Sequence record: GQ149088
DNA: 6,094 bases
Direction: 5' to 3' (one strand)
From: Escherichia phage St-1
A program made the position numbers and the translations under genes. Shown here in pieces: positions 758 through 6,093 of the stretch. The notes under the pieces are model-generated. The model had not been told where the DNA came from. It ran no database searches and saw only the letters and a list, made by a program, of their open reading frames with translations. Numbering within the stretch: the first letter of the stretch is position 1; each line of letters begins with the position of its first letter.

Positions 758-2242
758 ATGGCTACTGAAATCTTCTCTGATGTTGTTAAGGCTGTTTGGT
801 CGCACGTTACGGCCAAGCATGCTCATCTTCGTATGGCTGTTCAGGTTGATAATCGTAGCCGCCTTCTCTCTGACCTTGTTTATCAGTTGGAAAAACGTCT
901 TTCTGAAGAGACTCATTTGGATGGTGAGACTCTTGCCGTTTATGAATCTCAGACCGCTCTTCTGGAGGATCATATGGCTCTGGTTCGGAAGTGTGCTGCC
1001 CAACTTGATAATAGTAACACTATAGACCACCGTACTCCTCTGGATGCCGAATGTGTTTTTCTGTTTGAAATGATTTGCCCAGGTGTTCGCTACGGTAAAA
1101 CGTTGAATTCTCTTTGGACTAAGTATGTAGCCCAGTGGCCTGAAAAGTTGATTCGTCATGAGCTTGATATGGTCAAGCCTTTATCCTTTAAGGATGAGGT
1201 TGCTAAGTACATGGAGAAAATGCAGGAAAAAACACGCAAGAACCGCATGACTCAGAAAGTAATTAATGAGATGCGTATTGCTCACCAGAAAGGCTGGTTC
1301 TTTGTATTTGATACACTGACCCTTGCTGATGACCGTTTGCAGGCTTTTAATGAAAACCCCAATGCTCTTCGTGATTATTTTAGGACTGTTGGTCGAGCTG
1401 TTCTGCGCGCTGAAGGTCGTTCGGTTAAGGATTCCTACAACGACTGCTATCGTTATCTTTGTGTGCCGGAGTTTGGAGGTCAGCACGGCCGTCTTCATTG
1501 GCACGTTGTGCATATGGTGCGGACTCTTCCTTTGGGAAGTCACGACCCTAATTTCGGTCGCAAGGTACGTAATTATCGCCAGATTAACTCGTTCCGTGGC
1601 ATGTGGCCCTATGGCTTCACGCAACCGATAGCTGTTCGCTATCAACATGACGCTTATTCTCGTAAAGGTTGGCTGTGGCCTGTTGACAAATCAGGAAAAG
1701 CAATGCAGAGTAAGCCGTATCAGGCGGTCGCATGGTATGTGACCAAGTATGTAGCCAAGCAATCTGACCAGCGTCAGAAAGCTATTACCGAGAGACAAAA
1801 GAAATGCAAGAATCCATTAATGGCAATCTGTCTGAAGAAAGAATTTCGGGTGCGCAGCAGTCGGAAGCTCGGAATGGAGCTCCCGTCAATGGCTCACCTG
1901 AGCAACAAAGTGCTTCTGGAACTGAGCCGAATCAGCTTCGATTCCAGCCCTCTGTATCAGATAGTGAAAGAGAACGCCAAAAAGCAATTGACCTTGAACA
2001 TCGGCGCGCTGCCTTTGCACGTCATTTTGGATGTGCGCCCGGAAGTGAGAAGCATGTTGAAAATTATTCGTCGTTTGATGAAAAAGACACCCGAGTTCAA
2101 TTGGCAGAGTTCTATCGCTTCAATGACGGTCACCTTAAAAAATGGGGATATTTCTGATGAAGCACGTCAATACATTATTGATGCAGGAATTACGCCTACT
2201 GATTTGCGAGCTAAAGCGACTCAGGCTTTCGGCGGTAAGTGA
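758..2242 (+). CDS. A: Replication initiation protein A (rolling-circle HUH endonuclease)
   Basis: 494-aa ORF alignable by recall to phiX174 protein A, including FVFDTLTLADDRL, NPNALRDYFR, a GRLHWHVVH HUH-like motif and the catalytic tyrosine pair in WYVTKYVAK. It contains the conserved origin sequence and ends in TGA 2240-2242. GAGGG lies 8 nt upstream of the ATG. Confidence 0.95.
   Translation: MATEIFSDVVKAVWSHVTAKHAHLRMAVQVDNRSRLLSDLVYQLEKRLSEETHLDGETLAVYESQTALLEDHMALVRKCAAQLDNSNTIDHRTPLDAECVFLFEMICPGVRYGKTLNSLWTKYVAQWPEKLIRHELDMVKPLSFKDEVAKYMEKMQEKTRKNRMTQKVINEMRIAHQKGWFFVFDTLTLADDRLQAFNENPNALRDYFRTVGRAVLRAEGRSVKDSYNDCYRYLCVPEFGGQHGRLHWHVVHMVRTLPLGSHDPNFGRKVRNYRQINSFRGMWPYGFTQPIAVRYQHDAYSRKGWLWPVDKSGKAMQSKPYQAVAWYVTKYVAKQSDQRQKAITERQKKCKNPLMAICLKKEFRVRSSRKLGMELPSMAHLSNKVLLELSRISFDSSPLYQIVKENAKKQLTLNIGALPLHVILDVRPEVRSMLKIIRRLMKKTPEFNWQSSIASMTVTLKNGDISDEARQYIIDAGITPTDLRAKATQAFGGK
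1001..1030 (+). other. Viral (+) strand origin of rolling-circle replication; protein A nick site predicted between G1007 and A1008
   Basis: CAACTTGATAATAGTAACACTATAGACCAC differs at only 2 of 30 positions from the phiX174 origin CAACTTGATATTAATAACACTATAGACCAC as I recall it, and sits inside gene A as in phiX174 and G4. Confidence 0.85.
1804..2157 (+). CDS. B: Internal scaffolding protein B
   Basis: 117-aa ORF embedded in gene A in a different frame. The C-terminus LAEFYRFNDGHLKKWGYF matches the phiX174 B C-terminus (PAEFYRFHDAEVNTFGYF). The Shine-Dalgarno is weak. Confidence 0.9.
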   Translation: MQESINGNLSEERISGAQQSEARNGAPVNGSPEQQSASGTEPNQLRFQPSVSDSERERQKAIDLEHRRAAFARHFGCAPGSEKHVENYSSFDEKDTRVQLAEFYRFNDGHLKKWGYF

Positions 2243-2318
2243 CCCGGATTTTTCTCAGGAGAAAATTCATGCTGAGCTCGACTCGCTATTACGCAAGTTA
2301 TCGCGCCACTTTGACTAA
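2157..2318 (+). CDS. K: Protein K (small non-essential protein)
   Basis: Not in the ORF track (53 codons). ATG 2157 overlaps the B stop (TGATG), reads in the third frame across the A/C junction and ends at TAA 2316-2318. Product MKHVNTLLMQELRLLICELKRLRLSAVSDPDFSQEKIHAELDSLLRKLSRHFD resembles phiX174 K (IKQELLLLVYEL...AQLEKLL) by recall. Confidence 0.7.
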   Translation: MKHVNTLLMQELRLLICELKRLRLSAVSDPDFSQEKIHAELDSLLRKLSRHFD

Positions 2319-2475
2319 GCAGTTGATGTTTCTTACAAAAGCTGACTTTACCAATGACGATGAGAAATGGCTTAACGCCTTTGGTAATCTTCTCCGTCAA
2401 TGGTTTCAGATTGAGGATTGGAAAGGCAATCATAAAAAATTGCTTGACGACTTGAAAAAACGTGATTATCTTTGA
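2239..2475 (+). CDS. C: Protein C (switch from RF replication to ssDNA synthesis and packaging); start is either GTG 2239 or ATG 2269
   Basis: The DDEKWLNAFG motif matches phiX174 C (DEEKWLNMLG). GTG 2239 overlaps the A stop as GTGA, mirroring the phiX174 ATGA overlap. ATG 2269 has a strong AGGAG (2257-2261, 7-nt spacing). Stop TGA 2473-2475. Confidence 0.85.
   Translation: MTRIFLRRKFMLSSTRYYASYRATLTKQLMFLTKADFTNDDEKWLNAFGNLLRQWFQIEDWKGNHKKLLDDLKKRDYL
2444..2472 (+). promoter_or_regulatory. Candidate promoter pD inside the 3-prime end of gene C
   Basis: TTGACG (2444-2449), 17-nt spacer, TATCTT (2467-2472), placed just ahead of the D ribosome-binding site. phiX174 has pD at the equivalent position. 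Confidence 0.4.
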
Positions 2476-2501
2476 CTCGAATCTTACATAAGGAGATACC
2501 T

Positions 2502-5094: not shown

Positions 5095-6093
5095 ATGCTT
5101 GGAAGTATCATTGGAGGTATTGGCTCATCGCTGCTCGGAGGACTTGCTTCCGGCGGTATCTCCAGTCTCCTTAATAAAATGTTTAGTAAAATGCCAGAAC
5201 ACGCCGCCTCTTCTGCTGGCCTTACTAATGGTCAAGGAACTATTGGTATGGATACTGACGCTGGCATTCAGTCTGCTATTCAGGGCTCTAATGTTCCTCC
5301 TGCTGGTCAATTGCCTGCCTCTAATACCTCTGGTGTTATGGCTGATGCTGGTAATATGATTCGTAATGCTGGCAGAGCTTTGCTTGACGGTACGATTCAG
5401 GCCGGTTCTGACAAGGTTAAAGAGGCTCTTATTGATAAGTTGGTTGGAGGTAATGATGCTAAAGACCGAGGAAAGGCAACCCGTGATTACTTGGCAGCGG
5501 CTTTCCCTGAGCTCAACCCATGGGAACGTGCTGGAGCTGATGCTTCCACTGCCGGGTTAGAGTCTTCCGCTCAGAATCAACAAAAAGAGATGCTTAAAAT
5601 GCAACTGGATAACCAGAAGGATATTGCCAAGATGCAGATGAATAACAATTTGCAGATTGCTGGCATTCAGTCCGCTACATCTCGCCAGAATACGAAGGAT
5701 TCTGTTTATGCCCAGAATGAGATGCTTCAGTATAATCAACGTGAGTCGCAGGCACGCGTTGCGTCCATCCTCGCCAACACTGACCTTACGACTAAGCAGG
5801 CCACCCATGAAATTATGAGGATGGCTCTTACCCGCGCTCAGGAGACTGGTCAGCATTTGACTAACTCTCAGATTATGGCTTTGGAGAAAAAGGTTTATGC
5901 AGAAATTGGCAAAATTCATCAAGATACTCAAAATTCTCGCTATGGTAGCTCTCAAGTTACTGCCGCAGCGAAAGACGTTACGAATATGATTACTGACGCC
6001 TCTTCAGGCTTTGCTGATTGGGCCTCTCAGCAGTGGAATTCATTCTTTAAGGATGGTAAGTCTGATGGTATTCCTCTCAATACCAGAAAATAA
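5095..6093 (+). CDS. H: Minor spike / DNA pilot protein H
   Basis: 332 aa with a Gly-rich N-terminus (GGIGSSLLGG) and long stretches matching phiX174 H by recall (AGI.SAIQGSNVP, TRDYLAAAFPELN.WERAGADAS, LDNQK.IA.MQ, IAGIQSATSRQNTKD.VYAQNEML, NSRYGSS). AGGAG lies 8 nt upstream. Stop TAA 6091-6093. Confidence 0.95.
   Translation: MLGSIIGGIGSSLLGGLASGGISSLLNKMFSKMPEHAASSAGLTNGQGTIGMDTDAGIQSAIQGSNVPPAGQLPASNTSGVMADAGNMIRNAGRALLDGTIQAGSDKVKEALIDKLVGGNDAKDRGKATRDYLAAAFPELNPWERAGADASTAGLESSAQNQQKEMLKMQLDNQKDIAKMQMNNNLQIAGIQSATSRQNTKDSVYAQNEMLQYNQRESQARVASILANTDLTTKQATHEIMRMALTRAQETGQHLTNSQIMALEKKVYAEIGKIHQDTQNSRYGSSQVTAAAKDVTNMITDASSGFADWASQQWNSFFKDGKSDGIPLNTRK

Follow-up and report, generated by a model that had tools for sequence, protein, structure and literature searches.

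Gene C very probably starts at ATG 2269, downstream of the GTGA at the gene A stop, in an ordinary alpha3-clade A/K/C junction

The stretch of DNA analysed here (6094 nt, referred to throughout as 'the window') is the complete genome of an alpha3-clade microvirus (Microviridae, Bullavirinae, Alphatrevirus), which can be aligned end to end with the genomes of Lilleven, phiK and alpha3 at identities of 95.0%, 94.0% and 92.4%, respectively. The features that make up the junction between its genes A, K and C are the following:

758 to 2242, plus strand: gene A, replication initiator; an open reading frame ending in stop codon TGA 2240-2242, annotated at the same coordinates in phiK and alpha3.
1804 to 2157, plus strand: gene B, internal scaffolding protein (Pfam PF02304 Phage_B, E = 2.3e-50), annotated identically in relatives.
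2157 to 2318, plus strand: gene K, 53 aa (phrog_8511, E = 1.5e-39, full length), annotated in 12 relatives.
2239 to 2242, plus strand: GTGA, in which a C-frame GTG overlaps the A stop; a candidate start of C for which functional use is not supported.
2243 to 2268, plus strand: A-C spacer of 26 nt, coding for K only and holding 18 nt that are absent from phiX174 and G4.
2257 to 2261, plus strand: putative Shine-Dalgarno (SD) sequence of gene C, AGGAG, separated from ATG 2269 by 7 nt and invariant in 57 of 57 haplotypes.
2269 to 2475, plus strand: gene C, DNA maturation protein, 68 aa; start placed at ATG 2269 from PF12025, annotations and the change in constraint.

The three reading frames are distributed across this region in a manner that is characteristic of the Bullavirinae. 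Relative to the frame of gene A, gene K is read at +1 and gene C at +2. Gene K begins at the stop codon of gene B, where TGA 2155-2157 and ATG 2157-2159 overlap (TGATG) at nucleotide 2157; this base is at once the last of the B stop, the first of the K start and part of an A codon, and is the only position in the interval 2157-2318 that is truly common to three reading frames. From there K proceeds in the third frame across the A stop (AGT at 2238, GAC at 2241) and into gene C, so that it overlaps the 3' end of A (2157-2242) and the 5' end of C (2269-2318) and is the sole reading frame in between (2243-2268). Gene C likewise occupies its expected position between A and D (ATG 2502), with K lying over its 5' end, and the relatives are annotated in the same order. 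The coding content of the junction is thus best described as both A and K as far as 2242, only K at 2243-2268, and both K and C at 2269-2318.

The C-frame open reading frame itself extends further upstream (2239-2475), and GTG 2239-2241, which lies directly after an in-frame TAA (2236-2238) and 30 nt before ATG 2269, is its first possible start codon. A protein initiated there would comprise 78 aa, carrying a 10-residue N-terminal tail that begins (M)TRIFLRRKFMLSS. The initial annotation had correctly observed that K runs through the A stop and into C, and that an AGGAG-ATG combination 30 nt downstream, at 2269, is a well-placed rival start; it had also proposed that GTGA 2239-2242 is read in all three frames, and had left the start of C ambiguous. 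The proposed three-frame reading depends wholly on GTG 2239 being a start codon.

Taken by itself, the GTGA motif is within chance. A GTGA is present in frame with C at 2239-2242, but a formal NTG start is created at a TGA stop in three of every four cases (whenever the preceding base is A, G or T), and nine stop-free codons are expected about 65% of the time. The junction between genes C and D serves as an internal control in this regard: TTG 2472 overlaps the C stop codon (TGA 2473-2475) to form a corresponding TTGA, and is open in frame as far as the D start at ATG 2502, a distance that is, by coincidence, also 30 nt. In relatives the C-D spacing has another length, one that is out of frame and not a multiple of three; in WA13, for instance, C ends at 2476 and D starts at 2520.

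More direct information on the start of gene C can be obtained from the point at which constraint on its reading frame begins. The main set used for this purpose consisted of 19 sequences from the alpha3 clade, found through nucleotide similarity of whole genomes or of 17-mers and hence independently of the C protein, in which the region 2100-2480 aligns without gaps. (A 17-mer scan of metagenome and genome collections produced almost exclusively chance matches, of which only two loci, L131 and L144, were real, and searches of IMG/VR via proteins G and C gained no new genomes.) The numbers of variable sites at the first, second and third codon positions of the C frame were:

2243-2268 (K plus the hypothetical extension): 1 of 8, 6 of 9 and 4 of 9.
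2272-2315 (K plus C): 1 of 15, 0 of 15 and 7 of 14.
2319-2472 (C only): 11 of 51, 2 of 51 and 37 of 52.

Second positions of the C frame, which correspond to third positions of K, are thus variable at 6 of 9 sites upstream of ATG 2269 versus 0 of 15 in the K/C overlap (Fisher p = 6e-4, 19 sequences) and 2 of 66 across all of C (Fisher p = 1.1e-5, 19 sequences). At all six variable upstream positions the changes leave the K protein unaltered but would alter the hypothetical extension, exchanging T for I, R for Q, I for T, L for P, K for R and F for Y. Downstream of 2269 the pattern inverts, with seven of the eight variable sites in the K/C overlap falling on third positions of C and for the most part altering amino acids of K. 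Purifying selection directly after the overlapped GTG was accordingly not found at 2243-2268; within the sequences compared, purifying selection on the C frame sets in exactly at ATG 2269.

An enlarged set, to which 57 extra loci were added, comprises 75 sequences representing 57 distinct haplotypes. Because the extra loci were recruited by exact identity of the C protein, they were left out of the non-synonymous comparison inside C, which rests on the 19 sequences described above. Among the 57 haplotypes the GTGA, the AGGAG and ATG 2269 are each invariant, whereas the 10-codon extension exists as 23 peptide variants that include radical replacements (L to H, R, P or V; F to C, S or Y; R to L or Q), and site 2255 is occupied by all four bases. 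The K peptide encoded by the same bases (SDPDFSQEKI) is almost constant. Second positions of the C frame in the spacer are variable at seven of nine sites; viewed as third positions of K, these vary as freely as third positions of C in the region that codes for C only (7 of 9 versus 39 of 52, p = 1). The only two that are invariant, 2258 and 2261, both lie within AGGAG. Apart from the constraint imposed by K, the extension evolves like non-coding sequence, with a footprint of selection at K-synonymous sites where the SD is located.

Two further observations that might be taken to favour a functional GTG proved to be uninformative. The invariance of GTG 2239 says little, because its bases are already fixed by the A stop or by K codons: a G to A change at 2239 (a second position of K) is synonymous in A and replaces Ser with Asn in K; T2240 is the first base of the A stop; and G2241 is a first position of K, such that a change of TGA to TAA replaces Asp with Asn. 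Similarly, no in-frame stop occurs in the extension among alpha3-clade relatives, the frame being open to 2269 in all 57 haplotypes, but just two single-base changes (A2260T and A2263T) could introduce a stop, and each of them would alter an amino acid of K.

The initiation signals at the two candidate codons differ considerably. The AGGAG at 2257-2261 is predicted to form an anti-SD duplex of -7.4 kcal/mol at a functional spacing (6-7 nt) from ATG 2269, comparable to that of gene D (-9.3) and stronger than those of A, B or K, while GTG 2239 is preceded only by a weak GGCGG that ends 2 nt upstream. The ATGA of phiX174 and G4 is preceded by the same weak context (GGCGG or GGTGG plus 3 nt), and because these phages use it successfully, a weak SD context alone cannot exclude the use of GTG 2239. 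In E. coli, termination-reinitiation is 80-100% lower at an intergenic distance of 38 nt, and a distance of about 20 nt nearly abolishes coupling (PMC10666635); removal of the SD cut reinitiation by 60-100% in four of five E. coli gene pairs (PMC6728339). The combination of a 26-nt gap with a strong SD suggests that initiation at ATG 2269 is best explained as independent of termination on A. A hairpin over the SD (2246-2267, UUUUUC/GAGAAA), predicted in a 120-nt fold, was also considered and rejected: the corresponding 45-nt fold has z = 0.52, 138 of 200 shuffled sequences fold as well, none of its pairs has changes on both sides, and shuffling gives scores like those observed.

The placement of the C start at the downstream ATG is, moreover, already known from deposited annotation. 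In all 13 of the annotated alpha3-clade records (alpha3, with two entries, phiK, Lilleven, NC3, NC35, ID21, ID32, NC28, NC29, ID62, WA13 and WA45), gene C is a 207-nt reading frame (68 aa) that starts at the ATG homologous to 2269, with K annotated from the B stop. Automated gene calls on 57 further contigs, which carry members of the same 90% cluster as the C protein of the window, always place C at the ATG, with the end of A located 26 nt upstream. The window's 68-aa protein has the same sequence as alpha3 C (Swiss-Prot VGC_BPAL3), an identical protein being deposited also as ACS44790.1, and the 78-aa GTG-initiated sequence was absent among approximately 15 billion predicted proteins in public collections.

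Family models are in agreement with these annotations. The protein belongs to PF12025 (Phage_C; E = 1.2e-9, 38.3 bits against a cut-off of 25) and matches phrog_1465 (E = 1.3e-33); positions 8-66 of the Pfam model match residues 18-76 of the long form, which projects position 1 of the model onto the Met at 2269. A search of the literature returned neither N-terminal data nor ribosome profiling for gpC of an alpha3-clade phage, and a preprint describing complete mutagenesis of phiX174 (bioRxiv 10.64898/2026.07.25.740675) contains nothing on start-codon variants of C.

Taken together, this evidence makes it very likely that gene C starts at ATG 2269, and that the window contains an ordinary alpha3-clade A/K/C junction in which C is provided with an independent SD. 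Two other arrangements deserve consideration. If C were to start only at GTG 2239, in the manner of phiX174, ATG 2269 would be no more than an internal methionine codon, preceded by chance by an SD-like AGGAG. This arrangement, for which there is hardly any probability, would be consistent with the fact that, in one of two equally good alignments, the GTGA is positionally homologous to the ATGA of phiX174 and G4, and with a resemblance between the C-frame codons RKF at 2260-2268 and residues 2-4 of phiX174 C. However, that resemblance is also imposed by the conserved E-K-I codons of K, and even so it varies (K to R or E; F to Y, C or S). The sharp difference in second-position variability on either side of 2269 (6 of 9 versus 2 of 66), the selective footprint of the AGGAG at K-synonymous sites, the consistent use of the ATG in every annotation and gene call, and the start of the Pfam Phage_C model at Met 2269 all argue against it.

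A less extreme alternative is that of 'dual' initiation, in which GUG 2239 is a site of reinitiation for ribosomes that finish translating A (or A*) at UGA 2240-2242, yielding a minor form of C with the 10-residue tail in addition to the major product from ATG 2269. Under such a scheme the GTGA would truly be read in three frames, and the tail would have no sequence-specific function. The tail evolves at a neutral rate with radical replacements, so that there is no selection for it; GUG initiates translation less well than AUG; the long form is found in no database; and the invariance of the GTG in 57 of 57 haplotypes, which together with the frame being open to 2269 in all of them might otherwise speak for reinitiation, is fully accounted for by the A stop and the K codons. 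The geometry is nonetheless favourable, since reinitiation can be efficient at a -4 overlap, which is the commonest coupling arrangement (four of five tested E. coli pairs being translationally coupled; PMC6728339), and the same upstream context serves the ATGA start of phiX174 and G4. Here a weak SD-like element stands just 2 nt from the GTG, and loss of the SD lowered reinitiation in four of five E. coli pairs (PMC6728339). On balance dual initiation is unlikely, and low-level reinitiation at GTG 2239, judged from sequence alone, has a correspondingly small chance of occurring; if it does occur, the tail is under no detectable protein-level selection. A still more specific version, to which a slightly lower probability is assigned, holds that the alpha3 clade makes a major 68-aa C from AGGAG-ATG plus a minor 78-aa C that is coupled to translation of A, with the GTGA acting as a functional remnant of ancestral coupling. 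Were this the case, the remnant would link the replication initiator A to its inhibitor C.

The reading that is preferred, with C starting at ATG 2269, can be placed in a simple evolutionary scheme. Protein C (68 aa) would be initiated from its own consensus SD (AGGAG 2257-2261). In phiX174 and G4, the 4-nt ATGA overlap probably couples translation of C to termination of A; in the alpha3 clade, 18 extra nucleotides part the A stop from the C start and would supply the SD, such that translation of C may proceed independently of termination on A. The alpha3 clade would then have replaced a 4-nt A/C overlap by a spacer and an independent start, although both the direction of the insertion or deletion and the loss of coupling are conjectural. 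The apparent three-frame overlap at the GTGA is most likely either a relic of an ancestral ATGA or a coincidental by-product of the TGA stop, and no nucleotide at 2239-2242 is required to be read in three frames. The corresponding claim of the initial annotation is thus unsupported, constraint beginning at 2269 and annotations using the ATG. Its description of the C start as ambiguous holds insofar as both candidate codons are present, but the comparison with related genomes that it proposed as a check (13 of 13 annotated relatives and 57 contigs starting at the ATG) and the other comparative evidence decide for ATG 2269.

The A/K/C junction of microviruses is a textbook example of overlapping genes, and beyond correct annotation the significance of these results is small: the arrangement matches public alpha3-clade annotations, and is in that sense ordinary and already known. 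The modest gain is that a start codon could be settled from comparisons of nucleotide sequence, by means of a site-by-site change in constraint and an SD footprint at K-synonymous sites. The absence from the alpha3 lineage of the 4-nt A/C overlap seen in phiX174 and G4 bears on how tightly expression of C is linked to that of A across microviruses, and is relevant to projects that aim to 'decompress' the phiX174 genome. In phiX174, C matters for fitness (64% of its single amino-acid changes are detrimental) and K is dispensable (bioRxiv 10.64898/2026.07.25.740675), and the dominance of the C frame over constraint inside the K/C overlap of the alpha3 clade fits with that difference in importance.

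Comparison with phiX174 (NC_001422; A ending at 136, C at 133-393, K at 51-221) illustrates both what is shared and what is different. As in the window, K of phiX174 extends from the B stop (TGATG) through the A stop and over the 5' end of C; the two genomes also share the A C-terminus (...GGK*), the downstream sequence GAAAATTC and membership of C in PF12025. In phiX174, however, ATGA forms a true 4-nt A/C overlap that is read in three frames, whereas the C start of the window lies 26 nt past the A stop and has its own AGGAG; the C protein measures 86 aa in phiX174 and 68 aa in the window. The G4 clade (G4, NC_001420; ID2; ID52) possesses the same A/K/C architecture and, like phiX174, an ATGA overlap (preceded by GGTGGAAAATGA), without the 18-nt spacer and without an independent SD for C. 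The statement in the initial annotation that phiX174 has ATGA at the junction of the A stop and C start is therefore confirmed, and can be extended to G4, ID2 and ID52.

At the nucleotide level, the junction reads GGCGGAAAATGA followed by GAAAATTCGAC in phiX174, GGTGGAAAATGA followed by GGAAATTCAAT in G4, and GGCGGTAAGTGA, CCCGGATTTTTCTCAGGA and GAAAATTCATG in succession in the window. The 18 extra nucleotides of the alpha3 clade preserve the reading frame, a necessity for K; they push the A stop and the conserved GAAAATTC apart and include the SD. The C-terminus of A (...AFGGK* in the window, ...TAGGK* in phiX174 and G4) aligns without gaps. The extra segment can be placed either as 2243-2260 or as 2239-2256, an ambiguity that arises because it is flanked by xTGA...AGGA; the ATGA of phiX174 aligns with GTGA 2239-2242 or with AGGA 2257-2260, within the SD, at the cost of two mismatches each, and that of G4 at the cost of four each. 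The further idea that an ATG had been 'replaced' by GTG at this point accordingly corresponds to one of two equally parsimonious alignments, and is possible rather than established. The PHROG profile of C places the first residue (Met) of the phiX174 type on codon AGG 2257-2259, and ATG 2269 of the window corresponds to codon 5 of the C genes of phiX174 and G4.

A more distant relationship is provided by Pectobacterium phage Mimer (ON872163), a divergent member of the Bullavirinae whose homologues of A, B and C are arranged in the same order, and in which the C-homologous region aligns with the C core of phiX174 and alpha3. The 94-aa gpC annotated in Mimer has its start at the B stop, the place of the K start in the other phages, runs in one frame into the C core, and overlaps A by 95 nt; the gpC frame offers neither ATG nor GTG close to the A stop. 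Because of this different junction geometry, Mimer is uninformative as an outgroup for distinguishing an 18-nt insertion in the alpha3 clade from a deletion in phiX174 and G4; the geometry of the A/C junction differs in every lineage compared. Within the alpha3 clade itself, alpha3 and phiK (X60322, X60323 and DQ085810) have the same gene order, frames and coordinates as the window to within 1-2 nt, and share with it the A stop, a K of 162 nt, a C of 207 nt from the ATG, and the conserved GTGA, AGGAG and ATG. Their genomes are distinguished from the window by point substitutions only (92-95% identity), and at the junction itself there is no difference.

A different arrangement of the K and C genes is found in Mimer, a divergent Bullavirinae phage, in its annotated gpC:

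Pectobacterium phage Mimer (L237, ON872163.1), 2199-2483, minus strand: gpC, 94 amino acids as annotated.

This gene begins at the B stop, which is the site of the K start in other Bullavirinae, overlaps A by 95 nt and continues, within one frame, into a homologue of the C core (...AAFLNMLHNILGAWFKYED...SLVDILKAKGY). Because gpC thus runs from the B stop to the C core in one frame, the equivalents of ‘K’ and ‘C’ form a single ORF in Mimer, whereas in phiX174, G4 and alpha3 the two genes occupy separate frames. K might represent the N-terminal piece of a longer ancestral C, severed by a frameshift; alternatively, the arrangement in Mimer may have arisen by fusion of K and C. Both the loss of the K stop and the variability of K codons fit weak constraint on the C-terminal part of K. 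The substitution T2316G removes the K stop (TAA, window 2316-2318) and lengthens the protein in several haplotypes from metagenomes (for example L144, a match from the 17-mer scan) as well as in phage ID21, whose annotated K measures 189 nt. Amino-acid changes are found in 10 of the 16 K codons of the K/C overlap across the 57 haplotypes.

At the other end of K, nucleotide 2157 of the window is common to three reading frames, since it closes the B stop (TGA), opens the ATG of K and also falls within an A codon; the corresponding TGATG is kept in phiX174 (position 51) and in G4 (position 1638). A further potential start lies within the A/B overlap:

Window 2142: ATG in the K frame, five codons 5' of the annotated K start (MGIFL-MKH...).

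This triplet is formed by Lys-Trp codons of B (AAA TGG), and phiX174 and G4 lack an ATG at the matching site. Its anti-Shine-Dalgarno pairing is weaker than that of ATG 2157 (-2.5 versus -5.5 kcal/mol); initiation there would give 16 nt that code in three frames.

The public record of Lilleven (MK629527.1) leaves B, K, E and J unannotated and places three ORFs, each named ‘hypothetical protein’, between H and A (intergenic region, 5397-6031), and MG945254 is rotated, with ‘similar to’ misc_features as its sole annotation. For the overlapping genes of microviruses, automated annotation cannot be relied on.

Around GTG 2239, phage NC3 carries CAA at window positions 2236-2238 in place of the TAA of the others, and the C frame is therefore open farther 5' of the GTG; NC3 shows that the stop directly before the GTG is not itself conserved for any purpose. 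Within the A-C spacer (window 2246-2267), the clade-specific GGATTTTTCTC repeats the adjoining conserved GAGAAAATTC imperfectly and in inverted orientation, a possible hint that it arose through template switching or snap-back. An RNA hairpin formed by GGATTTTTCTC and GAGAAAATTC found neither statistical nor covariation support when tested.

At the C/D junction, the C stop (TGA 2473-2475) shares bases with TTG 2472, from which the frame stays open to the in-frame D start, ATG 2502, which lies 30 nt past the TTG and is preceded by a strong AAGGAG Shine-Dalgarno sequence. This geometry matches that of GTGA and ATG at the A/C junction of the window. In phiX174 the C/D junction is likewise an ATGA (C 133-393, D 390-848); the 4-nt overlap that phiX174 has at both A/C and C/D is thus a spacer at both in the alpha3 clade. 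In WA13-type relatives the C-D spacer is of another length and out of frame.
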